Part shown: positions 421 through 49,976 of the stretch, piece after piece | Position numbering within the stretch: the stretch's first letter is position 1 | Layout of the letters: every line of letters begins with the position of its first letter | Source of the DNA: Escherichia coli | GTDB lineage: Bacteria > Pseudomonadota > Gammaproteobacteria > Enterobacterales > Enterobacteriaceae | NCBI RefSeq assembly: GCF_044324875.1 | Contig: NZ_CP172185.1 | DNA: 64,000 nt | Reading direction: 5' to 3' (one strand) | Notes under the pieces: model-generated | Database searches by the model: none | What the model saw: the letters and a program-made list of their open reading frames with translations, nothing else | What the model was told of the DNA's origin: nothing | Position numbers and translations under genes: made by a program

Positions 421-437
421 CTGCACAACAGCGCTGT

Positions 438-2064: not shown

Positions 2065-2230
2065 AAGATATGTTCCGTTATACGCAGCCCACAACGCGTC
2101 CTGCCCGTGGATGCGCTGACGTGTTATGGCTTGCGTATGGGGTTGATGGAATAAGTGAAAAACCGCGGCAGAACGGGAAGATCAGGTAACCGACAAGGGA
2201 CAGAACACCGGATGCAGGTTCAGAATGAAT

Positions 2231-2261
2231 GATCTCCGTTGACTTCGGTTCACATCATTAA
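2231..2261. repeat. conserved leader element, copy A (GATCTCCGTTGACTTCGGTTCACATCATTAA)
   Basis: Direct repeat of the element at 3160-3195; the shared core GATCTCCGTTGA...TTCACATCATTAA is visible in the sequence. Confidence 0.6.
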
Positions 2262-2420
2262 GCAGGACAGTAAGGTTTTACCGACGGAGTGTTTCCAGGA
2301 GCGAAAGCAGAGAAAAATACCGTTGCATGACTTCAGGACGACTTTTTCAGAAAACGAGCTAAGGGCGTCAGCCAACGTCCTGTAGCATAAGCTCAGGCAC
2401 CGGATGTCGTTTTACAGGGC

Positions 2421-3152: not shown

Positions 3153-3159
3153 GATGAGA

Positions 3160-3195
3160 GATCTCCGTTGATTTGGATTGACTTCACATCATTAA
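3160..3195. repeat. conserved leader element, copy B (GATCTCCGTTGATTTGGATTGACTTCACATCATTAA)
   Basis: Immediately 5' of the 2421..3152 start codon on the minus strand (contains its GGAG ribosome-binding site); on the plus strand it contains TTGATT-17 bp-ATTAAT, a promoter-like arrangement. Confidence 0.6.
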
Positions 3196-4282: not shown

Positions 4283-4648
4283 ATGATTGATGTCTTAGGG
4301 CCGGAGAAACGCAGACGGCGTACCACACAGGAAAAGATCGCAATTGTTCAGCAGAGCTTTGAACCGGGGATGACGGTCTCCCTCGTTGCCCGGCAACATG
4401 GTGTAGCAGCCAGCCAGTTATTTCTCTGGCGTAAGCAATACCAGGAAGGAAGTCTTACTGCTGTCGCCGCCGGAGAACAGGTTGTTCCTGCCTCTGAACT
4501 TGCTGCCGCCATGAAGCAGATTAAAGAACTCCAGCGCCTGCTCGGCAAGAAAACGATGGAAAATGAACTCCTCAAAGAAGCCGTTGAATATGGACGGGCA
4601 AAAAAGTGGATAGCGCACGCGCCCTTATTGCCCGGGGATGGGGAGTAA
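4283..4648 (+). CDS. insC: IS2 transposase OrfA (InsC)
   Basis: [56 protein letters not shown]... matches remembered IS2 InsC (121 aa). Confidence 0.95.
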
Positions 4649-5511
4649 GCTTAGTCAGCCGTTGTCTCCGGGTGTCGCGTGCGCAGTTGCACGTCATTCT
4701 CAGACGAACCGATGACTGGATGGATGGCCGCCGCAGTCGTCACACTGATGATACGGATGTGCTTCTCCGTATACACCATGTTATCGGAGAGCTGCCAACG
4801 TATGGTTATCGTCGGGTATGGGCGCTGCTTCGCAGACAGGCAGAACTTGATGGTATGCCTGCGATCAATGCCAAACGTGTTTACCGGATCATGCGCCAGA
4901 ATGCGCTGTTGCTTGAGCGAAAACCTGCTGTACCGCCATCGAAACGGGCACATACAGGCAGAGTGGCTGTGAAAGAAAGTAATCAGCGATGGTGCTCTGA
5001 CGGGTTCGAGTTCCGCTGTGATAACGGAGAAAAACTGCGAGTCACGTTCGCGCTGGACTGCTGTGACCGTGAGGCACTGCACTGGGCGGTCACTACGGGC
5101 GGCTTCAACAGTGAAACAGTACAGGACGTCATGCTGGGAGCGGTGGAACGCCGCTTCGGCAACGAGCTTCCGGCGTCTCCAGTAGAGTGGCTGACGGATA
5201 ATGGTTCATGCTACCGGGCTAATGAAACACGGCAGTTTGCCCGGATGTTGGGGCTTGAACCGAAGAGCACGGCGGTGCGGAGTCCGGAGAGTAACGGCAT
5301 AGCAGAGAGCTTCGTGAAAACGATAAAGCGTGACTACATCAGTGTCATGCCCAAACCAGACGGGTTAACGGCAGCAAAGAACCTTGCAGAGGCGTTCGAG
5401 CATTATAACGAATGGCATCCGCATAGTGCACTGGGTTATCGCTCGCCACGGGAATATCTACGGCAGCAAGCCAGTAATGGGTTAAGTGATAACAGGTGTC
5501 TGGAAATATAG
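4606..5511 (+). CDS. insD: IS2 transposase OrfB (InsD)
   Basis: 301-aa protein [34 protein letters not shown]... matches remembered IS2 InsD; overlaps insC as in IS2. Confidence 0.95.
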
Positions 5512-6227
5512 GGGCAAATCCAATATGTGTAGAATTATCTATTTAAAAAGATATGTATATAACACTTAATAAAAACATGTGTATATAGTATCATACCGAC
5601 ATTCTCAACATCTTCAGACTTCCATACATACTGGGTGTTGATTTCTCACTTTTACAGCCAGCATGGAGTTTTCTGTCCTAAAAACAGAGCAGATTTACTC
5701 TGGAATTATTTTTCTGCCCCCGTATTTCAGGCCCCAGAAAAGACAATCCGAAGCAAACCGTTTGTCAGCCTCCATATCATCTTTTACCCCCGGAAAGTGA
5801 TCGCGTTTTACAACCAGAATGACAGCCATACTGATTATGTCGTCTCCCGGCCCCCTTCACATATAACATGCATGTCTGTCATTGCTTACTGCTCCACATG
5901 ACCGGATTTCACATACAGGATGCACATTCAGTGTTTTTATCGCCACTATAACAGACAGATTACTGTCGTCTTTACTCTTCAGATTGTTAATCTGACCACA
6001 AGAACAGCCGAACGGCAAAACGCCCTCCACAAGGGGCACATGAACCATAGTTGATAGCATGTTTTTCCTAATCAAGGAATAGTTCAGGAATATTTTATTG
6101 CATTAATAACTGGCGAATAATCGTTCTGTGAACACAAAATGCTTTTATTTGTAAATTTTATTGCATTGCACTCGTTTTATTGATATGGGGTTTAATAACA
6201 GATAACCCGGAAAGAAGGAGAAAACAG

Positions 6228-7019
6228 ATGACATTACGGATTAACGATCAGGGGCGAGATAAACAGAATCAATTTTTATCGAAAAATGGAGAAAATCTGA
6301 ATTCGTTAAAATCGCGTCATGTGCAGGATAGGCATTTACCTGAATGGCTTAAGGATAAAGTTGCAGCATTCTGGTTTTGTCTGGTGATAAAGGATATGAA
6401 AGTGTCAGGGAGCAGTTACTATGAACTTACCATGCAACTTCCCACTTCTGAAGAATCTGTTTGCATCAGTAAGCTGTCATCCTCAACCCATGAGATTCGG
6501 CTGGAGATCATCAGGCGATGGATTGATAGTGTAGCACAGATAGAAACGGAAGCTTTTACTAAAAATCTCGTTGATGCCATCTATAAAAACTGGAAGGAAA
6601 TCGGGAACAAAAACCAGGCTACATGGCTTAAAAAAAATCCGGAACAACTCGAGTGGGCATGGAAATATATTAACATTCGTATTCCCGAGTCACATTTAAC
6701 CTGGTTTTGCCCCGTCAATAACGAAGAGAAACGCATTGCCATCTTAGCATTGCTTAAAATACTGTATCCCGGAGATATACCATGCCAGTACAACGACAAA
6801 GAGTTTCATGTCGGGATCTGCGCTGAAGAACATTTTTACAGAAGAATGCACGACGCTTTCAGAAAACAGTTTATCGACGGGAAAAAAGATAAACGGGTAC
6901 AAATTAACGTAAAGATATCACCGTCCGCAAAAAGCGCTCTGGACAGACTGACCAGAGCGAGGAAAACAACACAGCAGGCTATTCTGGAACAACTGATTCT
7001 GAACGGTAGACTGGATTAA
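6228..7019 (+). CDS. hypothetical protein with a possible C-terminal ribbon-helix-helix-like DNA-binding tail
   Basis: ORF 6180..7019 trimmed to the ATG at 6228, preceded by AAGGAG; AT-rich; C-terminus VQINVKISPSAKSALDRLTRARKTTQQAILEQLI resembles strand-helix RHH motifs (inference). No family recognised. Confidence 0.45.
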   Translation: MTLRINDQGRDKQNQFLSKNGENLNSLKSRHVQDRHLPEWLKDKVAAFWFCLVIKDMKVSGSSYYELTMQLPTSEESVCISKLSSSTHEIRLEIIRRWIDSVAQIETEAFTKNLVDAIYKNWKEIGNKNQATWLKKNPEQLEWAWKYINIRIPESHLTWFCPVNNEEKRIAILALLKILYPGDIPCQYNDKEFHVGICAEEHFYRRMHDAFRKQFIDGKKDKRVQINVKISPSAKSALDRLTRARKTTQQAILEQLILNGRLD

Positions 7020-8002
7020 CTTTCACTACTTCCACTCCTGGCAGTTTTCCTCTTTTTGTAGTGTCTCCCGGCTGCAGGCATCAGGTACTTTTCCGTCATT
7101 TCGTTGCAGAACTCTTCAATGTAGTTAATCAGCTTCTGGTGTGCTTTCACCTTTTCTTCCCCGGGGGACGCTTTCAGATAAATGTCCTCCTTTTCCACAA
7201 GTGTATTTATAAACTCTCCCGGACATCCCTGGTTATAAAGCAACGTGAAAAACAACACATTCCCCAGTCTCTCCAGTAACTGCGATTTAACCCTGTATTG
7301 TTGTTTGCTGAGGATTGATTGTTTTATAAAGCTTAGTCTTGTTAAAAGTTGTTCAAATCCCGGTTCCAGTTTAAAAACAGATTTTAATACCAGGGACTGA
7401 TACTCCTGATAAAAAAGTTCAAACGTCGGGGATGCAGACTGACGAACAGATTTGGCTACAACCCATGGACTAAATCCCATGATTGGGATTTCCTTCGCTC
7501 CCTCCAGCGCACTCAGAGGTAGTCCAGCAATCCATGCGTCCAGCTTAGCCGAATCAATATCCCCGCTCAAAACCTCATACAAACTGCCCGTGAACGGTTG
7601 AGTCGGTTTTTTTGTTGTTTTACCTTCTGATTGCCTGAATCCATCCACTTTTCTCCGGATATTACGCGGAATCAGCATAAAAGGCGGGACATTAAGTGAT
7701 AAACGTTTACCCGTCATACGATACCAGTGGCCCACCTCAACCTTAATCCGTGTATCTGGCCTTGTATCTGGCCTTGTATCTGGCCTTAGCTCAAGTGCTA
7801 TTATGTTAAGCAGGTACAGATAACGCACCGTATAACAGTCAAAATGTTTCTCCGGATCAAACGGCTCTGATCGTTCTCTGCACACAAGTCCGCTGCGCTT
7901 CAGTATTCGCTGGGTATCTTTCCAGGCCTTACTCTGAAGAATGGTGGTAACTCTGGCTTTATTAGCAATCTCACGCAGCGCATCACTTTGTTGTGCCGTC
8001 AT
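7016..8002 (-). CDS. hypothetical protein containing a tandem (RPDT)x3 repeat
   Basis: ORF 7016..8017 trimmed to the ATG at 8002, preceded by GGAGG; AT-rich; 12-bp unit repeated three times at 7752-7787; convergent with and overlapping the 3' end of 6228..7019 by 4 bp. Confidence 0.45.
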   Translation of the reverse strand: MTAQQSDALREIANKARVTTILQSKAWKDTQRILKRSGLVCRERSEPFDPEKHFDCYTVRYLYLLNIIALELRPDTRPDTRPDTRIKVEVGHWYRMTGKRLSLNVPPFMLIPRNIRRKVDGFRQSEGKTTKKPTQPFTGSLYEVLSGDIDSAKLDAWIAGLPLSALEGAKEIPIMGFSPWVVAKSVRQSASPTFELFYQEYQSLVLKSVFKLEPGFEQLLTRLSFIKQSILSKQQYRVKSQLLERLGNVLFFTLLYNQGCPGEFINTLVEKEDIYLKASPGEEKVKAHQKLINYIEEFCNEMTEKYLMPAAGRHYKKRKTARSGSSES

Positions 8003-8108
8003 CTCTTCCCTCCACACTTTGTCACTCCAGATTTTTTCACGTCCATATTACCTGAATGATAAACCGGATTAGTGTGATCCGGTTCAGCGAAATCAACAGG
8101 ATACCGGT

Positions 8109-8993
8109 ATGTCATTCAGCCATTCTTCCCTCTCTGCACAAGTGAAATCATATCTGACGTTTCTTCCTGAAGAAATTCGCCAGAAAATCCTTGAACATCT
8201 CCACGGTGTTATTCATTACGAGCCCGTGATTGGCATTATGGGTAAATCCGGCACAGGCAAAAGCAGCCTGTGTAATGCCATTTTTCAGTCCCATATCTGC
8301 GCCACGCATCCCCTGAACGGCTGCACCCGCCAGGCTCATCACCTCACCCTGCAGATCGGTGAACGCAGAATGACGCTGGTCGATCTGCCCGGCATTGGTG
8401 AGACACCGCAGCATGATCAGGAATACCGGGCACTTTATCATCAGTTGCTACCGGAACTGGATCTGATTATCTGGATCCTGCGGGCTGATGAACGTGCGTA
8501 TGCTGCCGATATTGCCATGCATCAGTTTTTACTGAATGAAGATGCCGATCCCTCGCGTTTTCTGTTTGTTCTCAGCCATGCCGATCGCGTGTTTCCTGCT
8601 GAAGAATGGAACGACACAGAAAAATGCCCGTCCCGTCAGCAGGAACTCTCACTGGCGACAGTAACAGCCCGGGTGGCCACCCTGTTCCCGTCATCATTTC
8701 CGGTACTCTCCGTTGCAGCGCCTGTCGGCTGGAATCTTCAGGCACTGGTGTCACTGATGATCCACGCACTGCCACCACAGGCAACCAGCGCGGTTTATTC
8801 GCATATCCGGAATGAAAAGCGCACTGCGCAGGATCAGCAACACGCACAGCAGGCTTTTGGTGACGCCATCGGCCAGAGTTTTGACGCTGCCATTGCCCGG
8901 TTCAGCTTTCCGGCCTGGATGCTGCAGCTTCTGCGCAAAGCCCGTGATCGCATTATCCGCCTGCTGATCACACTGTGGGATCGCCTGTTCTGA
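8109..8993 (+). CDS. YeeP/YkfA/YfjP-family GTPase (50S ribosome-binding GTPase domain)
   Basis: P-loop GIMGKSGTGKSSLCNA and DLPG motif; layout as remembered for YkfA/YfjP/YeeP of CP4 islands. Full length here (294 aa). Confidence 0.7.
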   Translation: MSFSHSSLSAQVKSYLTFLPEEIRQKILEHLHGVIHYEPVIGIMGKSGTGKSSLCNAIFQSHICATHPLNGCTRQAHHLTLQIGERRMTLVDLPGIGETPQHDQEYRALYHQLLPELDLIIWILRADERAYAADIAMHQFLLNEDADPSRFLFVLSHADRVFPAEEWNDTEKCPSRQQELSLATVTARVATLFPSSFPVLSVAAPVGWNLQALVSLMIHALPPQATSAVYSHIRNEKRTAQDQQHAQQAFGDAIGQSFDAAIARFSFPAWMLQLLRKARDRIIRLLITLWDRLF

Positions 8994-9102
8994 ATGTCCC
9001 CGCTTTTTGACCGGCCCCGGCGATAACCAGGAAACGCATTTCCGGTTGCGTCACCACAATGCTGAAGGGCTTCGGTAAACCCTCATTCATTTCATCCATC
9101 AG

Positions 9103-9133
9103 GCCGCGTCTTCTCCGTGAGACGCGGCTTTTT
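9103..9133 (+). terminator. putative intrinsic terminator downstream of the GTPase gene
   Basis: GCCGCGTC-loop-GACGCGGC stem followed by TTTTT. Confidence 0.55.
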
Positions 9134-9178
9134 CATTGATTACGTCATTCAGTCTTAACCACTGATAAGGAGCAAAGT

Positions 9179-9997
9179 ATGCGATTAGCCAGTCGTTTTG
9201 GTTATGCGAACCAGATACGCCGTGACCGTCCGCTGACCCGTGAAGAGCTGATGCACCATGTGCCCGGGATTTTCGGGGAAGATAAACACACCTCCCGGAG
9301 CCGGAACTATACATACATCCCCACCATCACCGTGCTGGAAAGCCTGCAGCGGGAAGGCTTTCAGCCATTCTTCGCCTGCCAGACCCGCGTACGTGACCCG
9401 GGTCGCCGGGGGTATACCAAACACATGCTGCGTCTGCGCCGTGACGGGGAGATAAACGGACAACATGTCCCTGAAATTATTCTGCTCAACTCTCATGACG
9501 GTACCTCCAGCTACCAGATGCTGCCGGGTTACTTCAGGTTCGTCTGCCAGAACGGATGCGTCTGCGGTCAGTCTCGGGGGGAAGTGCGTGTTCCGCACCG
9601 GGGAAATGTGGTGGACAGAGTCATTGAAGGGGCTTACGAGGTGGTGGGCGTGTTTGACCGGATAGAGGAGAAGCGTGATGCCATGCAGTCGCTGGTCCTG
9701 CCGCCACCGGCACGCCAGGCGCTGGCACAGGCGGCACTGACTTACCGTTATGGTGACGAACATCAGCCCGTCACCACCGCCGACATTCTGACACCACGAC
9801 GCCGGGAGGATTACGGTAAGGACCTGTGGAGTGCTTATCAGACCATCCAGGAGAATATGCTGAAAGGCGGGATTTCCGGTCGCAGTGCAAAAGGAAAACG
9901 TATCCATACCCGGGCCATTCACAGCATTGATACCGATATAAAACTCAACCGCGCATTGTGGGTGATGGCAGAAACGCTGCTGGAGAGCATGCGCTGA
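9179..9997 (+). CDS. DUF932-family protein (YfjQ/YafZ-like)
   Basis: 272-aa protein in the position and with the general sequence character of YafZ/YfjQ homologues that follow the GTPase in CP4-type islands. Confidence 0.6.
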   Translation: MRLASRFGYANQIRRDRPLTREELMHHVPGIFGEDKHTSRSRNYTYIPTITVLESLQREGFQPFFACQTRVRDPGRRGYTKHMLRLRRDGEINGQHVPEIILLNSHDGTSSYQMLPGYFRFVCQNGCVCGQSRGEVRVPHRGNVVDRVIEGAYEVVGVFDRIEEKRDAMQSLVLPPPARQALAQAALTYRYGDEHQPVTTADILTPRRREDYGKDLWSAYQTIQENMLKGGISGRSAKGKRIHTRAIHSIDTDIKLNRALWVMAETLLESMR

Positions 9998-10088
9998 TGC
10001 TGTTTCCCTGAAAGTGCAGCCCTGACTCACGTCTGTACCAGTCCCCAGGCATTCTTCCATTCATTTACTTTTTATAAGGAATCATCTC

Positions 10089-10574
10089 ATGACAACCTTT
10101 TCGCATAGCTCCACCACACCTTCTGTTTCCGCAACTACTGCATCAGGGAATAACCAGTCTCAACTGGTTGCCACTCCCGTCCCTGATGAACAGCGCATCA
10201 GCTTCTGGCCGCAGCACTTTGGCCTCATTCCACAGTGGGTGACCCTGGAGCCCCGTGTCTTCGGCTGGATGGACCGTCTGTGCGAAGACTACTGCGGTGG
10301 TATCTGGAATCTGTACACCCTGAACAACGGCGGGGCATTTATGGCCCCCGAACCGGATGATGATGATGACGAAACATGGGTACTGTTCAATGCCATGAAC
10401 GGTAACCGCGCTGAAATGAGCCCGGAAGCCGCCGGCATTGCCGCCTGTCTGATGACGTACAGTCATCACGCCTGCCGTACGGAGTGTTATGCCATGACGG
10501 TTCATTATTACCGTCTGCGGGATTACGCCCTGCAGCATCCGGAATGCAGCGCCATTATGCGCATCATTGACTGA
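10089..10574 (+). CDS. antirestriction protein (ArdB/KlcA-like; YfjX/YafX family)
   Basis: 161-aa acidic protein (DDDDDETW...), position between the DUF932 gene and the radC-like gene as in K-12 CP4 islands. Confidence 0.6.
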   Translation: MTTFSHSSTTPSVSATTASGNNQSQLVATPVPDEQRISFWPQHFGLIPQWVTLEPRVFGWMDRLCEDYCGGIWNLYTLNNGGAFMAPEPDDDDDETWVLFNAMNGNRAEMSPEAAGIAACLMTYSHHACRTECYAMTVHYYRLRDYALQHPECSAIMRIID

Positions 10575-10589
10575 AAGGGGGCCGGAACA

Positions 10590-11066
10590 ATGCAACAGAT
10601 TTCCTTTCTGCCCGGAGAAATGACAACCAGAGAGCGCAGCCTCATTCAGCGGGCCCTGAAAGCCCTGGACCGCCATCTTCATGAACCCGGCGTGGCCTTC
10701 ACCTCCACGCATGCGGCACGGGAATGGCTGATTCTGAACATGGCGGGACTGGAGCGTGAAGAATTCCGGGTGCTGTATCTGAACAACCAGAATCAGCTGA
10801 TTGCCGGTGAAACCCTCTTCACCGGCACCATCAACCGCACGGAAGTCCATCCCCGGGAAGTGATTAAACGCGCCCTGTACCACAATGCCGCTGCCGTGGT
10901 GCTGGCGCACAATCACCCGTCCGGTGAAGTCACACCCAGCAAGGCAGACCGCCTTATCACGGAACGTCTGGTACAGGCGCTGGCCCTGGTGGATATCCGG
11001 GTGCCGGACCATCTGATAGTCGGTGGCAGCCAGGTTTTCTCCTTTGCCGAACATGGTCTGCTTTAA
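10590..11066 (+). CDS. RadC-like JAB-domain protein (YeeS/YkfG/YfjY family)
   Basis: JAMM motif region HNHPSGEVTPSKADRLITERL typical of RadC-like proteins. Confidence 0.75.
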   Translation: MQQISFLPGEMTTRERSLIQRALKALDRHLHEPGVAFTSTHAAREWLILNMAGLEREEFRVLYLNNQNQLIAGETLFTGTINRTEVHPREVIKRALYHNAAAVVLAHNHPSGEVTPSKADRLITERLVQALALVDIRVPDHLIVGGSQVFSFAEHGLL

Positions 11067-11128
11067 CCCGTCACAACCACATCACACCTGTTTTCACTTT
11101 TATCTTCTGTCTTCAGAGGTATCCCATT

Positions 11129-11350
11129 ATGAAAATCATCACCCGTGGTGAAGCCATGCGTATTCACCAACAGCATCCTGCATCCCGTCTTTTTCCGTTC
11201 TGTACCGGCAAATACCGCTGGCACGGTGGCACTGAAGCGTATACCGGTCGTGAAGTGCAGGATATTCCCGGTGTGCTGGCCGTGTTTGCAGAACGCCGTA
11301 AGGACAGTTTTGGTCCGTATGTCCGGCTGATGAGCGTCACCCTGAACTGA
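11129..11350 (+). CDS. DUF987-family protein (YeeT/YkfH-like)
   Basis: 73-aa protein in the conserved position between the radC-like gene and the CbeA/CbtA module. Confidence 0.6.
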   Translation: MKIITRGEAMRIHQQHPASRLFPFCTGKYRWHGGTEAYTGREVQDIPGVLAVFAERRKDSFGPYVRLMSVTLN

Positions 11351-11364
11351 GTCAGGGCATTCTG

Positions 11365-12009
11365 ATGAGCAGAATTATCACCATCACAGTGTATACGCTG
11401 GATGAACTTTCCTGCCCGGCACGGGAAAAAGCCCGCGACGGGTACCGTCAGCATCATGCTGACAGCAGCTGGTATGAAAACGTGTATGAGGACTTCAGGG
11501 CGGTCTGTGACATTGTCGGGATTGCCCTCCGCCAGCGAGTTATCCGGCTCAGCAGCGGCAGGTTTATGGAAGAGCCGTGCATCTGGTTCAGCGGCTTCAG
11601 CAGCCAGGGGGACGGAGCCTGTTTTGACGGGCGCTGGCACTGGCAGCCGGCAACAGCCAGGAAAATCCGGGAATATGCCCCGCAGGACCGTGAGCTTCAT
11701 CGTATCGCGGATGCCCTGCAGGCGGTGCAGAAGCGTAACTTCCGGCAGCTTCAGGCTGAAATCCGCCACCGGGGACGCTACTGCCATCCGTACAGCATGG
11801 ATATCACCGTCACCCGGGACAGTCCGACTGGTCAGGCTATGACAGCCGATGCGGAAGCCGCTGTCAGCGAAGCCCTGCGCGACCTGGCCTTCTGGCTGTA
11901 CCGTCAACTGGAAAACGAGTACGACCAGATGACCTCAGACGCCGCTGTGGATGAGGCCATTCTCATCAATGCATACATCTTCACCGAAACCGGTCAGCGC
12001 ACCGGCTGA
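11365..12009 (+). CDS. hypothetical protein (214 aa) between DUF987 and cbeA
   Basis: Plus-strand ORF with mixed, protein-like composition. The competing minus-strand ORF 11164..11907 is Pro/Ala/Arg/Gly-rich, as expected of an antisense artefact in GC-rich DNA. No family recognised. Confidence 0.45.
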   Translation: MSRIITITVYTLDELSCPAREKARDGYRQHHADSSWYENVYEDFRAVCDIVGIALRQRVIRLSSGRFMEEPCIWFSGFSSQGDGACFDGRWHWQPATARKIREYAPQDRELHRIADALQAVQKRNFRQLQAEIRHRGRYCHPYSMDITVTRDSPTGQAMTADAEAAVSEALRDLAFWLYRQLENEYDQMTSDAAVDEAILINAYIFTETGQRTG

Positions 12010-12058
12010 CCTGTCATCGTTAAACCATTCTTAACCACTTTTCAGAGAGGATTTTATC

Positions 12059-12427
12059 GTGTCAGACACACTCTCCGGGATAACTCATCCCGACGACAAT
12101 CACGACCGCCCCTGGTGGGGGCTTCCCTGCACAGTGAGGCCCTGTTTTGGCGCCCGTCTGGTGCAGGAGGGTAACCGCCTGCATTACCTTGCCGACCGCG
12201 CCGGCATCAGAGGCCGGTTCAGCGATGCGGATGCATACCATCTGGACCAGGCCTTTCCGCTGCTGATGAAACAACTGGAACTCATGCTCACCAGCGGTGA
12301 ACTGAATCCCCGCCATCAGCATACCGTCACGCTGTATGCAAAAGGGCTGACCTGCGAAGCCGACACCCTCGGCAGTTGTGGTTACGTTTATCTGGCTGTT
12401 TATCCGACGCCCGAAACGAAAAAGTAA
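12059..12427 (+). CDS. cbeA: type IV toxin-antitoxin system antitoxin CbeA (YeeU/YfjZ/YagB family)
   Basis: MSDTLSGITHPDDNHDRPWWGLPCTVRPCFGARLVQEGNRLHYLADRAGIRG... near-identical to remembered K-12 YeeU. Confidence 0.85.
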   Translation: MSDTLSGITHPDDNHDRPWWGLPCTVRPCFGARLVQEGNRLHYLADRAGIRGRFSDADAYHLDQAFPLLMKQLELMLTSGELNPRHQHTVTLYAKGLTCEADTLGSCGYVYLAVYPTPETKK

Positions 12428-12517
12428 ACCACCGGAATAACCTTCTGCTCCGGCCAGGTGTTTTCACCACGCCACTCTCCCCATAATTTAATCTCTCATA
12501 TCAGGAAAATCTTCAGT

Positions 12518-12928
12518 ATGAAATTATTACCCGACACACATGTACGGGAGGCATCGTGCTGCCCGTCTCCCGTCACCATCTGGCAGACACTGCTCATCCG
12601 TCTGCTGGACCAGCACTATGGCCTCACACTGAATGACACACCGTTCGCTGATGAACGTGTGATTGAGCAGCATATTGAGGCCGGCATTTCACTGTGCGAT
12701 GCGGTGAACTTTCTCGTTGAAAAATACGCACTGGTACGTACCGACCAGCCGGGATTCAGCGCAGGAGCCCCGTCGCAGTTAATCAACAGCATCGATATTC
12801 TCCGGGCCCGCCGGGCAACAGGCCTGATGACACGTAATAACTACAGAATGGTAAATAACATTACCCTGGGTAGCATCCGGGGGCGAAACGATGAAACTTT
12901 CCCTGACGCTGGAAGCCGACAGCGTTAA
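12518..12928 (+). CDS. cbtA: type IV toxin-antitoxin system toxin CbtA (YeeV/YkfI/YpjF family)
   Basis: Internal Met of ORF 12458..12928; ...[62 protein letters not shown]... matches remembered YeeV. C-terminus differs from K-12 and overlaps the next gene. Confidence 0.8.
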
Positions 12929-13316
12929 CGTACAGGCGCTGAACATGGGGCGAATTGTCGTTGACATTGATGGTGTTGAGCTCACTGAACTGATTAACAA
13001 GGTCGCTGAAAACGGTTATTCACTCCGCGTGGTGGATGAACGTGACGCTACCGAAACACCGGCGACTTCTGCCAGCTCTCATCAGTTGCCGGAAGACAAT
13101 ACAGTGATACAGAGCGTGATGCCATTAACCACTGAAACAGCGCTGGATATCCTCATTGCGTGGCTGCAGGACAATATCGACTGCGGGTCCGGAATTATTT
13201 TCGACAACGATGAGGATAAAACGGATTCGGCAGCACTGCTGCCCTGTATCGAACAGGCCAGAGCAGATATCCGCACCCTGCGCCAGCTGCAGCAGCTTCT
13301 GCACCAGAACCGGTGA
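12891..13316 (+). CDS. YeeW-like protein (DUF5983)
   Basis: 141-aa ORF immediately after and overlapping cbtA, the position of yeeW in CP4-44. Confidence 0.55.
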
Positions 13317-13343
13317 GTCTCACTCACCACGATTCATTAACCT

Positions 13344-13377
13344 GACGCCAGTCCGAATACGACTGGCGTTTTCATTT
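13344..13377 (+). terminator. putative intrinsic terminator after the yeeW-like gene
   Basis: GACGCCAGTC-loop-GACTGGCGT followed by a T-rich tract. Confidence 0.5.
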
Positions 13378-13399
13378 ATCAGAAAAAAGGGAAACAGTT

Positions 13400-14248
13400 A
13401 TGTCAGACATCACCATCTCCCGTCCGGAAGCGCTTAACGGACATACGGACCTTATCTGCTCCACAGATATCCGGCACGTTGTGACGGTACGGAATGAAGC
13501 ACTGCAACAAACCGAAAGGCTTATCCGGCAACTGGCAGAAATCTCAGCAATGACAGAAAGTATTGGCGGTAAAACTGTCCGGGACTGGGCCGTGAAACAG
13601 GATTTTCGCTGTGGCTGCTGGCTGATGGAAAAACCGGAAACCGCAATGAAAGCCATCACCCGTAACCTTGACCGCGAAATCTGGCGTGACCTGATGCAAC
13701 GCTCCGGGATGCTGAGTCTGATGGATGTACAGACGCGTGATTAATGGTACCGTTCACTGGAGGAGGATAATTTCCCGGAAATCAGCGAAGCGAATATCCT
13801 GAGCACGGCTGAACAACTGCACCGTAACAGGTATGAAATGGCTGAACGCGGCGTCATCAACCTCTTCAGGGGACTGAGCCGGACGCACAACAGCAGGTCA
13901 CCCTGTAAATTCGGCAGTAAGATTATCCTCAACAATCTGGTGAAATGGGACTGGTGGGGATTTGGTCTGAACCATGGTCCGCAGGCCGGGCAGCTTGCCG
14001 ACCTGGAAAGGATACTGTATCAGTTCAGCGGCAAACCCATACCCGATTACAGGGACAATATTATCATTCGTCTGGATGAGCACATCCGGTCCGTTCAGGG
14101 TAAAGCGTGCTATGAGGATGAGATGTTCAGCATCAGATACTTCAGGAAGGGCTCCGCGCATATCACGTTTAAACACCCGGAACTGGTGGAGAAGCTGAAT
14201 GCTGTTCTGGCGAAACATTATTCGGTAAAGTTCCATTCTTCTGTATAA
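13400..14248 (+). pseudogene. DUF4942-family gene interrupted by an in-frame TAA (13742-13744)
   Basis: ORFs 13400..13744 and 13838..14248 are in the same frame and joined by an open in-frame stretch (…WYRSLEEDNFPEISEANILSTAEQLHRNRYE…) apart from the single stop; the DUF4942 assignment is from memory of genes that follow cbtA/yeeW. Confidence 0.5.
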
Positions 14249-14555
14249 ACTTACACATCATGGGTATTGTGTCTCGCCCTGAACAAGGCCGACAGGTATA
14301 CTGCATTCGCTGAGTCATTACAGATAATGCCTCAACTGAGTTCAATCTACCTCCATGTACAACAACAATACGATGGGGGCTACATTGGGGGCTATATTTT
14401 CAAGAAAAACGTATATAGTTCAATTAAATCAATAAACTGAAAAAATTTCACCATTCCCCTCTGGGGAGAGGATTAGGGTGAGGGGCGCAAACCCGCTCCG
14501 GGGCCATTAATTACCCTGAATTTGATTATTTACACCACGGTAACAGGAACAACAT

Positions 14556-15215
14556 ATGCAGTTTGACTGGAGTGCCATCTGGCCTGCCATTCCGCTTCTG
14601 ATTGAAGGTGCCAAAATGACCCTGTGGATTTCGGTCCTCGGTTTGGCTGGCGGTCTGGTGATCGGATTGCTGGCAGGTTTTGCACGCACCTTCGGTGGTT
14701 GGATAGCCAACCACGTCGCGCTGGTCTTTATTGAAGTGATCCGCGGCACACCTATCGTCGTCCAGGTGATGTTTATTTATTTCGCCCTGCCGATGGCGTT
14801 TAACGACTTACGCATCGACCCGTTTACTGCGGCGGTGGTCACCATCATGATCAACTCCGGCGCGTACATTGCGGAAATCACGCGTGGTGCGGTGCTGTCT
14901 ATTCACAAAGGTTTTCGTGAAGCAGGACTGGCGCTCGGTCTTTCACGTTGGGAAACCATTCGCTACGTCATTTTACCGCTGGCACTGCGTCGTATGCTGC
15001 CGCCGCTGGGTAACCAGTGGATCATCAGTATAAAAGATACCTCGCTGTTTATTGTTATCGGCGTGGCGGAACTGACCCGTCAGGGGCAAGAAATTATTGC
15101 CGGTAACTTCCGCGCCCTTGAGATCTGGAGCGCCGTGGCGGTGTTCTATCTGATTATTACCCTGGTGCTGAGCTTTATTCTGCGTCGTCTGGAAAGAAGG
15201 ATGAAAATCCTGTGA
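14556..15215 (+). CDS. glnP: glutamine ABC transporter permease GlnP
   Basis: 219 aa; matches remembered K-12 GlnP. Confidence 0.95.
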
Positions 15216-15934
15216 TTGAATTTAAAAACGTCTCCAAGCATTTTGGTCCAACCCAGGTGCTGCACAATATCGATTTGAACATTGCTCAGGGCGAAGTCGT
15301 GGTGATTATCGGGCCGTCCGGTTCCGGTAAATCGACCCTGCTGCGCTGCATCAACAAACTGGAAGAAATCACTTCCGGCGATCTGATTGTCGATGGCCTG
15401 AAGGTTAACGATCCGAAAGTTGACGAGCGCCTGATTCGCCAGGAAGCAGGTATGGTGTTCCAGCAGTTTTACCTCTTCCCGCATCTGACGGCGCTGGAAA
15501 ACGTCATGTTTGGTCCGCTACGCGTGCGTGGCGCGAACAAAGAAGAGGCGGAAAAACTGGCGCGTGAGCTGCTGGCGAAAGTCGGCCTGGCAGAACGCGC
15601 TCACCACTACCCTTCCGAGCTTTCTGGTGGTCAGCAACAGCGTGTGGCGATTGCCCGTGCGCTGGCGGTAAAACCGAAAATGATGCTGTTCGATGAACCG
15701 ACTTCCGCTCTTGACCCGGAACTGCGCCATGAAGTGCTGAAGGTTATGCAGGACCTGGCTGAAGAAGGGATGACGATGGTGATCGTGACCCACGAAATCG
15801 GTTTTGCCGAGAAAGTAGCTTCGCGCCTGATCTTTATCGACAAAGGCCGGATTGCGGAAGATGGCGATCCGCAGGTGTTAATCAAGAACCCACCGAGCCA
15901 GCGCTTGCAGGAATTTTTGCAGCACGTCTCTTAA
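15212..15934 (+). CDS. glnQ: glutamine ABC transporter ATP-binding protein GlnQ
   Basis: 240 aa; Walker [10 protein letters not shown] and signature LSGGQQQR; matches remembered K-12 GlnQ. Confidence 0.95.
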
Positions 15935-15942
15935 CTTCTCAG

Positions 15943-15966
15943 CCTCCCTTTCCCCCGAAAGGGAGG
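15943..15966 (+). terminator. GC-rich hairpin downstream of glnQ (possible terminator)
   Basis: CCTCCCTTT-CCCCCG-AAAGGGAGG; no clear U-tract, so low confidence. Confidence 0.3.
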
Positions 15967-16050
15967 CACACCAGATTCCTCTCATTTAAAATCGCCCCTC
16001 CCCCAGCATCTATACTTATCTTTTTGCTCTGTTTTCTCACTGGAGGAGTC

Positions 16051-18276
16051 ATGCGGTGGATCCTGTTCATCCTCTTCTGCCTGCTGGGCGCACCTGCCCA
16101 CGCGGTATCCATACCCGGCGTTACAACCACAACGACAACGGACTCAACGACTGAACCGGCCCCGGAACCGGATATCGAACAAAAAAAAGCGGCCTATGGC
16201 GCACTGGCGGATGTGCTGGATAATGACACCTCGCGTAAAGAGTTGATCGACCAGTTGCGCACCGTCGCCGCGACGCCCCCTGCGGAACCCGTACCGAAGA
16301 TCGTGCCGCCGACGCTGGTTGAAGAGCAAACCGTGCTGCAAAAAGTCACCGAAGTCAGCCGCCATTATGGTGAAGCCCTTTCCGCCCGCTTCGGACAGCT
16401 TTATCGCAATATCACCGGCTCCCCGCATAAGCCGTTTAATCCACAAACCTTCAGCAATGCGTTGACCCATTTTTCAATGTTAGCGGTATTAGTGTTTGGT
16501 TTTTACTGGCTGATTCGCCTGTGCGCACTGCCGCTGTATCGCAAAATGGGCCAGTGGGCGCGGCAAAAAAATCGTGAGCGCAGTAACTGGTTGCAGCTTC
16601 CGGCGATGATTATCGGGGCGTTTATTATCGACCTGCTGTTACTGGCACTGACATTATTTGTCGGTCAGGTTTTAAGCGACAACCTGAATGCGGGCAGTCG
16701 CACCATCGCTTTCCAACAAAGTTTGTTTCTCAACGCCTTTGCCCTGATTGAATTTTTCAAAGCTGTACTACGCCTGATTTTTTGCCCAAACGTGGCGGAA
16801 CTGCGCCCGTTCACGATTCATGACGAGACCGCCCGTTACTGGAGCCGTCGCCTGAGCTGGTTAAGCAGCCTGATTGGCTATGGCCTGATTGTGGCCGTGC
16901 CGATTATCTCTAATCAGGTGAATGTACAGATAGGTGCGCTGGCGAACGTCATCATTATGCTGTGCATGACGGTCTGGGCGTTGTACCTGATCTTTCGAAA
17001 TAAAAAAGAGATTACCCAGCATTTGCTCAACTTCGCGGAGCATTCGCTGGCCTTTTTCAGCCTGTTTATCCGCGCCTTTGCGCTGGTGTGGCACTGGCTG
17101 GCAAGCGCCTATTTTATCGTGCTGTTTTTCTTTTCGTTGTTCGATCCGGGCAACAGCCTGAAATTTATGATGGGTGCAACGGTGCGCAGCCTGGCGATTA
17201 TTGGTATCGCAGCATTTGTTTCCGGTATGTTTTCCCGTTGGCTGGCGAAAACCATCACTCTCTCGCCACATACTCAGCGTAACTATCCGGAGCTGCAAAA
17301 ACGGTTGAATGGCTGGCTGTCGGCGGCGCTGAAAACGGCGCGTATTCTGACAGTCTGCGTGGCGGTAATGTTGCTGTTGAGCGCATGGGGATTGTTCGAT
17401 TTCTGGAACTGGCTGCAAAACGGTGCGGGGCAGAAAACCGTAGATATCCTGATCCGTATCGCACTCATTCTTTTCTTCTCGGCGGTTGGCTGGACAGTGC
17501 TCGCCAGTTTGATCGAAAACCGGCTGGCTTCGGATATTCATGGCCGCCCGCTACCCAGCGCCCGTACGCGTACCCTGCTGACGCTGTTTCGTAACGCGCT
17601 GGCGGTGATTATCAGTACCATCACCATCATGATTGTGTTGTCGGAAATCGGCGTTAATATCGCGCCATTGCTGGCAGGTGCCGGGGCATTAGGTCTGGCT
17701 ATCTCTTTTGGTTCGCAAACACTGGTGAAAGATATTATCACCGGGGTATTTATTCAGTTTGAAAACGGCATGAACACTGGAGATTTGGTGACTATCGGGC
17801 CGTTGACCGGTACTGTGGAACGGATGTCGATTCGCTCCGTGGGCGTACGCCAGGATACCGGGGCGTATCACATCATTCCGTGGTCTTCGATTACCACCTT
17901 TGCTAACTTTGTCCGCGGCATTGGTTCGGTAGTGGCAAATTATGATGTTGATCGCCATGAAGATGCTGATAAAGCCAATCAGGCACTGAAAGATGCGGTA
18001 GCGGAATTAATGGAAAACGAAGAAATTCGCGGGTTGATTATCGGTGAACCGAACTTTGCCGGGATTGTCGGCTTAAGCAATACCGCATTTACACTGCGTG
18101 TTTCGTTCACCACGCTGCCACTCAAACAGTGGACGGTCCGCTTTGCCCTCGACAGCCAGGTGAAAAAACATTTCGACCTGGCGGGCGTTCGCGCGCCGGT
18201 GCAGACTTATCAGGTGCTGCCTGCTCCGGGCGCGGCCCCGGCTGAACCGCTGCCGCCGGGGGAGCCAACGCTTTAA
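16051..18276 (+). CDS. ybiO: mechanosensitive channel YbiO (MscS family)
   Basis: [18 protein letters not shown] signal-like N-terminus, multi-TM region and MscS-like C-terminal domain; start at the ATG at 16051 preceded by GGAGG. Confidence 0.9.
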
Positions 18277-19199
18277 CGTTGGCGATTGACAAAACGGCGG
18301 CGCTGCTCGTCGTTCATAAAGGTCCAGGCAATAAAGCGACTCTGCTTTTGCCCCTGGGCCATCTCTTTTTTTACCACCTTCACCGCGCCCACGTCCGTCA
18401 GAGCACGATACAACGGCGGTAAGTTTTCACCACGAGATACCAGCGAGGTAAACCACATCACCTGCTTCGCGAAGCCTTTGCTCTCTTCAATCATCTTTTT
18501 GATAAAAGCGACTTCACCGCCTTCACACCACAACTCCTGTTGCTGACCACCAAAGTTCAGTACATCGTCTTTGTTCAGCCCCAGGTTACGGCGTTTACGT
18601 TCACTACCTGCCCGTGCCGCAGCGGCGGAATCGTGGAATGGCGGGTTACACAAGGTCGCGTCGTATTGCTCGTTTTTATGGATGATGCCGTTAAAAATCG
18701 CCCCACTCTCTTTTTGCCGACGCAGACGAATGGCGCGGTTAAGCCCCGGATTAGCACTGATGATCGCCTGCGCACTGCTTAACGCCTGGCTGCTGGTTTC
18801 ACTACCAGTAAAACGCCAGCCATATTCATGTACGCCAATCAGCGGGTAAATACAGTTCGCACCAACGCCGATATCCAGAATGCTGGCATTCGCTGGAATT
18901 GTTCCGCTTGCTTCTGCCAGTAAATCGGCAAGGTGATGAATATAATCCGCCCGGCCCGGTACTGGTGGGCAGAGAAAACCGTCGGGGATATCCCAGTTCG
19001 CTACGGCGTAAAAATGGGCCAGCAACGCCTTATTGAGCGCCTTCACCGCCAGCGGATTGGCAAAGTCTACGCTTTGCTCCCCGGCGGGTGTAAGCGTGAG
19101 GAATTGCCTGAGTTCAGGATTGACCTGACAAAGCGTGGCGAGATCGTAGCGGCTGTGATGACGGTTGCGCGGATGCAACCCCGGTTTCTGGGCGGACAT
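18273..19199 (-). CDS. rlmF: 23S rRNA m6A1618 methyltransferase RlmF
   Basis: [24 protein letters not shown]... matches remembered K-12 RlmF (308 aa); ORF track extends further upstream. Confidence 0.9.
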
Positions 19200-19474
19200 A
19201 GCATTCTCCTTTAAGCAGCGGCGTAAGATACCCGCATAACGCGACAGGGTAAATATCTGGCTGCGTTTATCATTTCTATAAACCTTCACATGGCTATGGT
19301 TTATGGCAATTCATCATAAAAATCAGCATCATGCATGTCATTGATTTGTCTTATTTTGTAAAAATATATCGTTCAAAAAATAAGCGTATCTCTGTCAATT
19401 TTTTGCGTCATTTTCATCGCCCAGGCGACCTACACTTATCAGGCACTACCCGTTGTATTTATGAGGATGTCATT

Positions 19475-19735
19475 ATGAAAAAGTGCCTCACACTACTGAT
19501 TGCCACCGTCCTGAGCGGAATCTCTCTCACGGCTTATGCCGCGCAACCGATGAGTAACCTGGACAGCGGTCAGCTACGGCCCGCCGGTACCGTTTCGGCA
19601 ACTGGCGCATCAAACCTAAGCGATCTGGAGGATAAACTGGCAGAAAAAGCGCGCGAGCAAGGCGCGAAAGGTTATGTCATTAATTCCGCAGGCGGAAATG
19701 ACCAGATGTTCGGTACTGCAACCATCTACAAATAA
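19475..19735 (+). CDS. mcbA: McbA (YbiM), DUF1471-family periplasmic protein
   Basis: MKKCLTLLIATVLSGISLTAYA signal peptide and C-terminal ...TATIYK; paralog of ybiJ. Confidence 0.85.
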   Translation: MKKCLTLLIATVLSGISLTAYAAQPMSNLDSGQLRPAGTVSATGASNLSDLEDKLAEKAREQGAKGYVINSAGGNDQMFGTATIYK

Positions 19736-19749
19736 CCCCACCAACGTAA

Positions 19750-19785
19750 CTGCATTCGCCTCTGGATGCAGTTTTCGCCTGTTTT
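19750..19785 (+). terminator. putative terminator after mcbA
   Basis: Short hairpin CTGCAT...ATGCAG followed by TTTTCGCCTGTTTT. Confidence 0.35.
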
Positions 19786-43221: not shown

Positions 43222-43674
43222 CTACCAGCGTTTTGCCGCCTGCTGATCGCTCTCCCGAGCTTCGACCCAGCGGTCGCCTTCCGGCGTGGCTTCGCGCTTC
43301 CAGAACGGTGCGCGGGTTTTGAGATAATCCATAATAAACTGCCCGGCTTCAAACGCACTGCTGCGATGCGCACTGGTGACACCGACAAAAACGATTTCAT
43401 CGCCCGGCCATAATTCCCCGATGCGGTGAATCACCGTGACGCGCCCCAGCAGCCAGCGGTTACGCGCTTCATCGACAATTTCTGCCAGTGCTTTTTCAGT
43501 CATCCCCGGATAGTGTTCGAGGGTTAATGCTTTGACGCTGTCGCCAAGGTTATGGTTGCGCACCTTACCGGTAAAGGTGACTACCGCACCGTCTTCATCA
43601 CGCTCCGCCAGCCACGGATACTCTTCTCCTACGCTGAATGGCTGCGGGCCGACAACAATTTTGGTTTCTGCCAT
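43222..43674 (-). CDS. moaE: molybdopterin synthase catalytic subunit MoaE
   Basis: 150 aa. Confidence 0.95.
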   Translation of the reverse strand: MAETKIVVGPQPFSVGEEYPWLAERDEDGAVVTFTGKVRNHNLGDSVKALTLEHYPGMTEKALAEIVDEARNRWLLGRVTVIHRIGELWPGDEIVFVGVTSAHRSSAFEAGQFIMDYLKTRAPFWKREATPEGDRWVEARESDQQAAKRW

Positions 43675-43675
43675 C

Positions 43676-43921
43676 TTAACCTCCGGTTACCGGCGGGAAG
43701 AAAGCTACTTCGTCGCCGTCAGTCAGCGGATGGTCAAAACTCACCAGCGTCTGGTTGACGGCAGCCAGCAATTTGCCATCTTCCAGCGCCAGCGCCCAGC
43801 GATCGCTCTGCGCAGCCAGGTGCTGGCGTAACGCTTCAACGGTTGGGAAATCCGCAGCTACTTCGGTTGCATCTGTTCCCACCAACTCGCGCACCTGGGC
43901 GAAAAAAAGAACTTTAATCAT
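43676..43921 (-). CDS. moaD: molybdopterin synthase sulfur-carrier subunit MoaD
   Basis: 81 aa ending in GG (…FFPPVTGG); start trimmed to [12 protein letters not shown]. Confidence 0.95.
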
Positions 43922-44399
43922 CCGCTTCCACCTTAAAGTCACCCGACTTGCCGCCGCTCTTCGCCAGCAAACGTACCGGACCAATCACCATATCTTTTTG
44001 CACCGCTTTGCACATGTCATAAATGGTCAGCGCCGCCACGGAGGCCGCGGTTAATGCTTCCATTTCGACACCGGTTTTCCCGGTCAGGCGGCATAAGGTT
44101 TCTATACGTACCCGATTGTGCTCCGGCTCGGCCTGTAAATTGACTTCAACTTTGCTGAGCATCAGCGGGTGACAGAGCGGGATCAGATCCCAGGTGCGTT
44201 TTGCCGCCTGAATACCGGCAATACGCGCAGTGGCAAATACGTCGCCTTTGTGGTGGCGACCATCAATAATCATCGCCAGCGTCTCGCTGCGCATGGTGAC
44301 AAAGGCTTCGGCGCGCGCTTCACGCACGGTTTCCGCTTTGGCGGAGACATCCACCATGTGCGCTTCGCCAGCGGCGTTGATATGGGTCAGTTGCGACAT
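43914..44399 (-). CDS. moaC: cyclic pyranopterin monophosphate synthase MoaC
   Basis: 161 aa. Confidence 0.95.
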
Positions 44400-44401
44400 A
44401 C

Positions 44402-44914
44402 TTATTTCTTCAAATGTGGATGGAAATTACACGGACGCGTACGGGCATCCAGCTGCGGCGCGATGATATTTTCCCATGCGGTACGGCACGCTTTGGTCGA
44501 ACCCGGCATGGCGAAAATCAGCGTTTTGTTAGCGACGCCCGCTACCGCACGAGATTGCAACGTTGAGGTGCCAATCTCTTCGAACGACAACATCCGGAAC
44601 ACTTCACCAAAACCTTCAACCTCACGGTCGAACAACGGCAGCAGCGCTTCGGGAGCCTGATCACCTTCCGTCAGGCCAGTACCCCCCGTAATCAATACCA
44701 CTTGTACATCGTCGCTGGCGATCCACGCAGATACCTGAGCGCGAATAGCGTAGCGGTTTTCTTTCACAATGGCTTTATCGACAACGTGATGACCCGCTTC
44801 TTGCGCCGAATCGCGCAGATAGTGACCGGAGGTATCGTCTTCTTCACCGCGACGATTAGAAACCGTAAGAATAGCAATACGGGTCGGGATAAATTCAGTG
44901 CTTACCTGACTCAT
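44402..44914 (-). CDS. moaB: molybdenum cofactor biosynthesis protein MoaB
   Basis: 170 aa. Confidence 0.95.
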
Positions 44915-44935
44915 CTGATCTCTCCTTTTGACGTT

Positions 44936-45925
44936 TTAGCCGCCAATGTACGATAAGTTTTGCGTAATACCGGTGTTATTTTGATGCAGGAAATGGGTCT
45001 GTTTCTTCTCCCGCAGCGCCGCTGAAATACGCGCTTCCAGCGCCTGTTGCTGGGTATCGTCTTCCAGCAGATCGCGCAGGTTAACGCCGCCCTCACCAAA
45101 CAGGCAGAGATGGAGTTTACCAATGGAGGAAACGCGCAGGCGGTTGCAAGTGGCGCAGAAGTCTTTTTCATACGGCATGATAAGGCCAATCTCTCCGGCA
45201 TAATCTGGATGGCAAAAGACTTGCGCGGGACCGTCGCTGCGTTGACGTAATTGGTGGATCCAGCCGCGACGCAGTAGCTCGTCACGCAGAACCTGACCAG
45301 AGATGTGATGCTTACGGAAGAGCTCGCTGCCCTCGCCCGTTTCCATCAGTTCGATGAAACGCAGCTGGATGGGACGATGCTGTATCCAGTTCAGAAAGGT
45401 GTCGAGCTGATGATGATTAACATCACGCATCAGCACGGTATTGACTTTGACCTTCTCAAAACCGGCCTCAAATGCAGCATCGATCCCTGCCATGACCTGG
45501 TTGAATTTATCCTGCCCGGTAATAGCGTGAAACTGGCGGGCGTCCAGACTATCAACGCTGACGTTGATGCCAGTAAGTCCAGCATCGCGCCAGTTCGCCA
45601 CATCGCGTTCCAGACGGTAACCATTGGTGGTGACCGCAATCTGGCGGATAGCGTCGTTTTCTCGCACAGCGGCGATGATATCGGTAAAGTCGCGGCGTAA
45701 AGACGGCTCACCACCTGTCAGACGGACTTTTTCGGTGCCCAGACTGGCGAAGGCGCGTGTAACCCGGCGAATTTCATCGACGGTAAGAAAGCCTTTATTG
45801 GTGACGCCGCTCGGTTTGTAGCCATCCGGCAGGCAGTAGGTGCAACGAAAGTTACACACATCGGTAATCGACAGGCGCAAGTAGTAAAACTTACGCGCAA
45901 ATGCATCAGTCAGTTGTGAAGCCAT
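44936..45925 (-). CDS. moaA: GTP 3',8-cyclase MoaA (radical SAM)
   Basis: CNFRCTYC radical-SAM cluster motif; start trimmed to [24 protein letters not shown] (329 aa). Confidence 0.95.
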
Positions 45926-45929
45926 GTAC

Positions 45930-46075
45930 ACCTTTCCAGATACGGGAGGCGAAGTCATTTCTTCCTTCGCCCTGGTGGCAATCTTTACGAGCATTGTCAC
46001 GGCCAAAGCACCGTATCAGTTGACCCAGGTGCAGAGGCTAGAGTGTTTAGTGGTTAAGCCGATACTAGCGCGTAA
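45930..46075 (-). ncRNA. expected molybdenum-cofactor (Moco) riboswitch in the moaA 5' leader
   Basis: Placed by established knowledge that the E. coli moaABCDE leader carries the Moco RNA motif; I did not verify the conserved structure base by base. Confidence 0.45.
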
Positions 46076-46261
46076 ATGAGATTTTTACCATCCACACTTT
46101 CGCTATGTAATCATGTATATAGCGTCATAATCGTGCTATTTCGCTACAGAATAAGGGAAAATGGCGGTTTTACTTTGATATACATCATCAGAGAGGCATA
46201 GCGTGCATCGTCCTTTAGAGGTAGAAGAAAATAGTTTGTATCCTCAATATTGGCAGGTTAA

Positions 46262-47230
<969 letters not shown>

Positions 47231-49398: not shown

Positions 49399-49474
49399 GA
49401 GTCGCTACCTGAAGGAGTTGGGCGGGCAGGTATGTAATTTTACTCGTCGTACTTAATTATGCCAACAAATTATA

Positions 49475-49490
49475 CTGGATAAAAAAACAG
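49475..49490 (-). promoter_or_regulatory. LexA (SOS) box of uvrB
   Basis: CTGGATAAAAAAACAG on the plus strand (CTG-N10-CAG), upstream of uvrB. Confidence 0.75.
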
Positions 49491-49976
49491 TTCCTCACCA
49501 TAATATTTCTGTTACAGCGTAAACTCCGCTGTCAATCATGAGCAAAATTTACTCTGTGGCGAGATAAAACTCCGGCCTTACCGGGTTATCCCCAAAGCAA
49601 CGGCTTTTTTAACATTTGTCAAGATGAGTGATGACAGTTTTATGGCAAGAGATGCCTCTTCAGTGACTGCCATTGCAATTATCTAACCAGTTAAAAAATA
49701 AAAGATATTTCTTTAAGCCGTCTTTAACGCCAATTCGCGTGCAAGCCGCGTATTCTCTCGCTTGCCTCGTGTTTTCTAACTCTAATACACATGGTTATCC
49801 ACAGGAATAGTGGATAACTGTCTGCAGCCCCTATCCCCCGCCGCCTGGGCAATTCCCACATTCATCGCATGATGCGGAAGTAAAATTTTTTTCGTGATTA
49901 TTTTAGAATTTAATTGGTTAAATTGCAGTCAATCGAAGACGCGATCTCGCTCGCAATTTAACCAAATACAGGATGG

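Follow-up and report, generated by a model that had tools for sequence, protein, structure and literature searches.

In the 64,000-nucleotide stretch of Escherichia coli DNA analyzed here, referred to throughout as the window, the Moco riboswitch of moaA and the LexA, BirA and Fur operators of neighboring genes are confirmed at their textbook E. coli K-12 places, which makes the result a control and not a discovery. Both the moa control region and the operators around it are already known and already present in public annotation. The window is the bio–uvrB–moa–dinG–fiu region of the chromosome, with the gene order bioABFCD–uvrB–yvcK–moaABCDE–ybhL…rhlE–dinG…fiu according to the RefSeq annotation of strain MEW (99.0% identity) and of K-12 MG1655, and the gene map that an earlier, sequence-only reading had drawn for this region is correct. 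Its orientation is inverted relative to K-12, so that the minus strand carries moaA, uvrB, dinG and bioB and the plus strand fiu, bioA and yvcK. Each element named by that reading sits beside the gene where it was expected, and its sequence equals, or all but equals, that of K-12, on which the experiments were done. It is very probable that we are dealing with the well-characterized moaABCDE control region, operating by the published switch model of the Moco leader, and that the remaining sites are the known LexA, BirA and Fur operators.

The immediate surroundings of the riboswitch are widely shared within the species. Of 5426 complete E. coli genomes, 5424 contain a match to the 2-kb stretch around it at 90-99% identity; moaA, yvcK and a "riboswitch" are the features annotated there in these genomes. 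The best match to the moaA region, at 99.0%, comes from a single genome among these 5426, most of the others falling at 95-99%; as even the best match reaches only 99.0%, the strain is without a very close relative in the collection for this segment.

Identity and architecture of the moaA leader

A Moco riboswitch had been placed before moaA from the letters of the sequence, and a covariance-model scan bears this out. The whole window was scanned with cmscan against all 4227 families of Rfam 15 at gathering thresholds. The strongest of the three matches is RF01055, the Moco RNA motif, which scores 103.4 bits where the gathering score is 36 and has an E-value of 1.2e-24 (Table 1). The match spans the full model (1-135 of 135) with no truncation, overlaps the start codon of moaA on the same strand, and has an intact moaABCDE operon downstream. 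The range originally proposed, 45930-46075, holds good for 128 of the 145 nucleotides of the actual element at 45913-46057; it is offset by about 17 nt and omitted the strand, which is minus. Upstream it overshoots by 18 nt into the -10 region of the S1 promoter, and at the other end it leaves out the final 17 nt, in which the moaA AUG, the codons that follow it and the 3' strand of P1 are located. No evidence against the riboswitch identification was seen within the window.

Table 1. Positions of the riboswitch, promoter elements, genes of the moa operon and operators, counted from the first letter of the window.
Feature	Coordinates	Strand	Basis and remarks
Moco riboswitch aptamer, RF01055	45913..46057	-	cmscan; entire moaA leader, which begins at about the S1 start and extends 12 nt into the coding sequence
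P1	46055-46041 with 45932-45919	-	cmscan alignment
P2	46038-46002	-	cmscan alignment
P3	46000-45975	-	cmscan alignment; 46000-45996 with 45979-45975, 5 pairs, 16-nt loop
P4	45972-45947	-	cmscan alignment; GAAA loop cap at 45961-45958
P5	45946-45936	-	cmscan alignment
Expression platform: purine-rich ribosome binding site GGAAAGGUG and moaA AUG (45925-45923)	45923..45937	-	cmscan structure; RefSeq annotation of MEW
moaABCDE operon	43222..45925	-	ORF list; RefSeq annotation of the 99%-identical strain MEW
moaA	44936-45925	-	reading frame open
moaB	44402-44914	-	reading frame open
moaC	43914-44399	-	reading frame open
moaD	end at 43676	-	reading frame open
moaE	43222-43674	-	reading frame open
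-10-like hexamer TAGTAT of the proximal S1 (ModE-dependent) promoter	46062..46067	-	read from the sequence; poor -35
ModE binding site CGCTATATACATGATTACATAGCG	46101..46124	-	pattern scan; centred about 55 nt upstream of S1
FNR-like site TTGATatacATCAT	46175..46188		one mismatch to TTGAT-N4-ATCAA
LexA box of uvrB, AACTGTTTTTTTATCCAGTA	49473..49492	-	22.6 bits, best in window; score reached by 0 of 300 shuffles
LexA box of dinG, TATTGGCTGTTTATACAGTA (asymmetric operator)	28475..28494	-	15.8 bits, second best in window
Fur operator of fiu, two overlapping 7-1-7 motifs TGATAATGCTTATCA and TCAAAATTATTATCA	19870..19896	+	best Fur matches in window
bioO, 40-bp inverted repeat GACTCGTAAACC-N16-GGTTTACAAGTC	53623..53662		pattern scan and direct reading

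Helix coordinates were obtained by mapping the cmscan structure line onto the window. All five helices, P1-P5, are aligned, with canonical pairs at 34 of the 41 paired positions of the model. The GNRA tetraloop on P4 is GAAA, and the P2 positions aligned to the tetraloop receptor read CCUGGG/UACGG against the model consensus CUAag/AuGg, as they do in K-12. P3 marks the Moco-associated members of the family, whereas members associated with the tungsten cofactor (Tuco), which share the overall motif and the Rfam family, are without it (PMC2408646); as the window RNA has P3, it belongs with the Moco-class members. Minimum free energy folding was dropped as structural support, given that the optimal structure of the 145-nt RNA (-42.0 kcal/mol) is unlike the consensus fold (-32.4 kcal/mol) and that its z-score against shuffles is -1.57. 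Energy folding being uninformative, it is the family model and published probing that support the structure.

The start position of moaA, verified both in the sequence and by the MEW annotation in RefSeq, is embedded in the first helix. The 3' strand of P1 reads GGUGUA at 45932-45927, and these bases form the 3' part of GGAAAGGUG, the purine tract acting as ribosome binding site; an internal loop of 4 nt within P1 holds the AUG itself, and pairing resumes below it with the first codons. The location of the E. coli ribosome binding site inside P1 was described by Regulski et al., and it implies an OFF switch (PMC2408646). The aptamer also contains GGA motifs at 45965-45963 and 45937-45935, which are probably the two CsrA sites that have been reported.

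Of 5424 complete E. coli genomes, 5396 carry the 145-nt riboswitch at 99% identity or more, and RefSeq labels it "riboswitch" there. The moaA-yvcK spacer, at 396 bp, has the same length as in K-12 and aligns to it with four differences, at 46057, 46071, 46129 and 46192. The sole difference within the Rfam match is that at 46057 (U here, A in K-12), which corresponds to model position 1 and is unpaired. With no more than one unpaired base changed, the RNA is effectively the K-12 RNA that was used for probing, P3 mutants and knockout genetics. Indeed, it shares with the K-12 moaA leader (Regulski 2008, PMC2408646) the gene, the position, the five stems, the GAAA tetraloop, P3, the Shine-Dalgarno sequence in P1, the ModE site and the leader length. 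The other three fall within the promoter region upstream of the aptamer and leave the ModE site, the FNR-like site and the -10-like hexamer untouched.

A consensus scan of 45850-46400 found no strong sigma-70 promoter, and S1 and S2 are therefore placed from the literature and from weak -10-like hexamers only; the lack of a strong sigma-70 promoter fits two activator-dependent promoters. The ModE site is identical in K-12, has 0 mismatches to CGNTATAT-N7-TAYATANCG and is unique in the 64 kb, a match that is partly circular because this pattern, the ModE consensus, comes from the modA and moaA operators. The S1 start would fall near 46056-46057, at the 5' end of the Rfam match, going by the published leader length of 131 nt, and S1 is the moaA promoter at which ModE acts (PMC2408646). 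S2, the distal and FNR-dependent promoter of moaA, is at -87 relative to S1 (PMC2408646). FNR sites of anaerobically activated promoters are centred near -41.5. The FNR-like site, about 38-42 nt upstream of the expected S2 start, has a position that appears to fit S2, though only approximately, and its pattern is not above chance on sequence alone, with 5 such matches in the window against 1.8 expected.

Control of moaA expression

According to the published model, moa transcription would start from two activator-dependent promoters, S1 by way of molybdate-bound ModE and S2 by way of FNR. The resulting leader of about 131 nt would fold into the five-stem Moco aptamer, in which P1 joins the 5' end of the leader to the Shine-Dalgarno region and flanks the AUG. 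When plentiful, Moco would bind the aptamer and stabilize P1, hiding the ribosome binding site and start codon and turning off moaA translation. The Moco signal would need MogA, MoeA and molybdate and would not need MobA, while leader RNA left untranslated would be open to Rho-dependent termination. CsrA, binding at two sites inside the aptamer, would have the opposite effect and expose the ribosome binding site. Much of this has been studied on the same RNA. In-line probing has been carried out on it, repression is lost when mutations disrupt P3 and regained with compensatory ones, and the leader represses in vivo in a manner that depends on mogA, modC and moeA and is independent of mobA (PMC2408646). 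CsrA activates moaA through two sites within the aptamer, with exposure of the Shine-Dalgarno sequence (PMC7652899).

How repression is finally executed is where the most serious alternative arises. Premature Rho-dependent termination could be the main output of the leader, occlusion of the Shine-Dalgarno sequence mattering only by uncoupling translation from transcription. Rho-dependent 3' ends have been reported in the moaA 5' UTR and ORF, with expression of a fusion more than 2-fold up in rhoR66S cells (PMC7815308), and no intrinsic terminator was found in the moaA leader. The Rho effect is modest in size, however, and with the Shine-Dalgarno sequence and the AUG physically part of P1, such termination extends the translational model rather than replacing it. 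We regard Rho as a possible, if somewhat unlikely, principal output, and translational occlusion by P1 as the preferred account.

A different objection concerns the reader of the signal. If the cofactor were sensed by a protein or some other intermediary acting on the leader, the RNA would not be a true riboswitch. Instability of the cofactor precluded a direct test of Moco–RNA binding (PMC2408646), a review still speaks of an "apparent" Moco-responsive aptamer, and there is at least one protein, CsrA, with binding sites inside the aptamer (PMC7652899). Yet sequence and structure are conserved around the multi-stem junction across distant phyla, and they are combined with varied expression platforms, the usual signature of a ligand-binding aptamer (PMC2408646). 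Moreover, a protein that mediates Moco-dependent repression has not come to light, and the effect of CsrA is in the opposite direction (PMC2408646, PMC7652899). An intermediary of this kind is therefore highly improbable, and we infer, as does the field, that Moco binds the RNA directly. Direct Moco–RNA binding is a biochemical problem, which the present sequence makes no easier, as the window RNA is effectively that of K-12.

Operators of the SOS, iron and biotin genes

Beside the riboswitch, the sequence-only reading had listed LexA boxes at uvrB and dinG, a Fur-like box before fiu and the bio operator between bioB and bioA. All are present, and in the matrix and pattern scans for LexA, BirA and Fur they top the window-wide rankings.

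For LexA, a matrix was built from 17 literature sites, with those of uvrB and dinG left out, and these two boxes took the two highest scores in the window, each being identical at 20 of 20 positions to the published site. The uvrB box, 74 nt upstream of the uvrB ATG (49398), is LexA-box1, lying between uvrBp2's -35 and -10 elements, and its core CTGTTTTTTTATCCAG conforms to CTG-N10-CAG. The 20-mer and its distance to the gene are the same as in K-12 and as published (PMC6015884, PMC3009722), and two substitutions relative to K-12 occur 5 and 23 nt upstream of the box. The dinG box, 14 nt upstream of the dinG ATG (28460), likewise retains the K-12 and published 20-mer and gene distance (PMC3009722). 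One of its half-sites reads TTGG in place of CTGT (2 mismatches), so that the two half-sites are not both consensus. A score at the dinG level turns up somewhere in 22 of 300 shuffled windows and is expected 0.0002 times per 150-bp promoter region. A simple scan for CTGT-N8-ACAG with 1 mismatch, which gave 30 matches against 18.85 expected, missed the dinG site because the operator is asymmetric, with one half-site off consensus.

Lower-scoring LexA matches at 18791-18810 and 26394-26413 were rejected as chance, since they lie within coding sequence and have scores in the range of the shuffles. Also near uvrB, about 400 nt upstream of the gene, are a perfect DnaA box TTATCCACA (49795-49803) and an inverted copy GTGGATAAC (49811-49819), both identical to K-12. 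They belong to the uvrBp3/DARS1 region, the place of ADP-DnaA reactivation (PMC6015884).

The Fur operator is located 103 nt upstream of the fiu ATG (20000), ahead of fiu-ybiX (20000-23001), and both genes are core members of the Fur regulon (PMC10164565). Of its two overlapping motifs, TGATAATGCTTATCA (19870-19884) has 1 mismatch and TCAAAATTATTATCA (19882-19896) has 2, where shuffles average 0.09 matches per window. The site is identical to the K-12 fiu-ybiX Fur operator, with only single-base differences in the flanks. When the 19-bp Fur consensus was used with up to 3 mismatches, no match was found in the window; the fiu site agrees with this 19-mer at 15 of 19 positions (4-5 mismatches), whereas the 7-1-7 model fits it well. 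A further 7-1-7-like sequence, TGATGATGATTAACA at 45408-45422 with 2 mismatches, occurs about 500 nt into the coding sequence of moaA. At that stringency the only other matches are the two fiu motifs. The copy within moaA may be due to chance, and it is not put down as such outright because shuffles yield only 0.09 per window.

The bio operator, whose full sequence is GACTCGTAAACCTAAATCTTTTCAATTTGGTTTACAAGTC, lies within the 86-bp spacer of the divergent genes bioB (ATG 53580, minus strand) and bioA (ATG 53667, plus strand). The operator is known as an imperfect repeat of two half-sites that overlaps the face-to-face promoters of bioA and bioB. The one in the window has one mismatch to the two-half-site pattern, to which shuffles never came closer than 3 mismatches. 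The biology of BirA and bioO and of the divergent bioA and bioBFCD promoters has been reviewed (PMC5640590). Both the 40-bp repeat and the 86-bp spacer are those of K-12 apart from one base, the half-site TCGTAAACC standing against TTGTAAACC in K-12 with C for T at 53627. Among 5419 E. coli genomes, exact matches to the spacer number 1918 (35%) for the allele of the window and 3226 (60%) for that of K-12. On these counts, C and T at 53627 are two common natural alleles and not a lesion. That the C allele measurably weakens cooperative BirA binding seems doubtful to us; if it did, a third of E. coli strains would be at a different set-point for the repression of biotin synthesis.

The probability that all of these matches are chance resemblances, or decayed and functionless relics in this strain, is negligible, although a dinG-level score recurs in 22 of 300 shuffled windows, the FNR-like site does not rise above chance and bioO is one base off K-12. 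The riboswitch (E 1.2e-24) shows hardly any variation over 5424 genomes, both LexA boxes equal footprinted sites at 20 of 20 positions and at the correct distance from the start codon, and all the regulated genes are intact.

Mobile elements, small RNAs and overall significance

The window includes several features outside these control regions. From position 1 to about 14455 it consists of a CP4-like genomic island directly upstream of glnP (ATG 14556), encoding a GTPase, a DUF932 protein, an antirestriction protein, RadC, a YeeU/CbtA toxin-antitoxin pair and a DUF4942 protein. K-12 homology sets in again some 100 nt ahead of the glnP ATG, within the glnH-glnP spacer, at a GC-rich repeat. The island separates glnPQ from glnH, which is absent from the window, and the glnHPQ operon appears to have been split by it from its promoter and binding-protein gene. 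Only a single genome covers at least 80% of positions 1-20000 in one place. The three best matches listed run from the island into the glnP-ybiO-rlmF flank, and in one of them the island exceeds 50 kb.

An IS1397 element of the IS3 family occupies about 29100-30700, between ybiA (28580-29062) and rhlE (30733-32097), where K-12 has a 231-bp spacer, and the Rfam match to ES036 (CssrF) at 30615-30657 is located at its edge. The Rfam match to naRNA4 (CssrE, a REP-derived nucleoid-associated RNA), with 78.4 bits at 23872-23942, is to the right of fiu-ybiX, on the side of hcxB, and the ORF at 24094-25179 follows after about 150 nt. Toward the other end, an exact lambda attachment core, GCTTTTTTATACTAA, is found at 55582-55596, just after ybhB. 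It is followed by gtrA, gtrB and type-specific glucosyltransferase genes of the gtrABC type of O-antigen modification (55940-58702) and, on the minus strand, by Mu-like genes for tail fibre and baseplate (59004-63960). The combination resembles a serotype-converting prophage sitting at the lambda attB, and 49 genomes have at least 80% of the stretch in common.

Existing knowledge of Moco, SOS, biotin and iron regulation is unchanged by the regulatory sites described here. Their value is one of quality control: simple scans recover known regulatory elements where they are expected, and the window is a normal segment of the E. coli chromosome.
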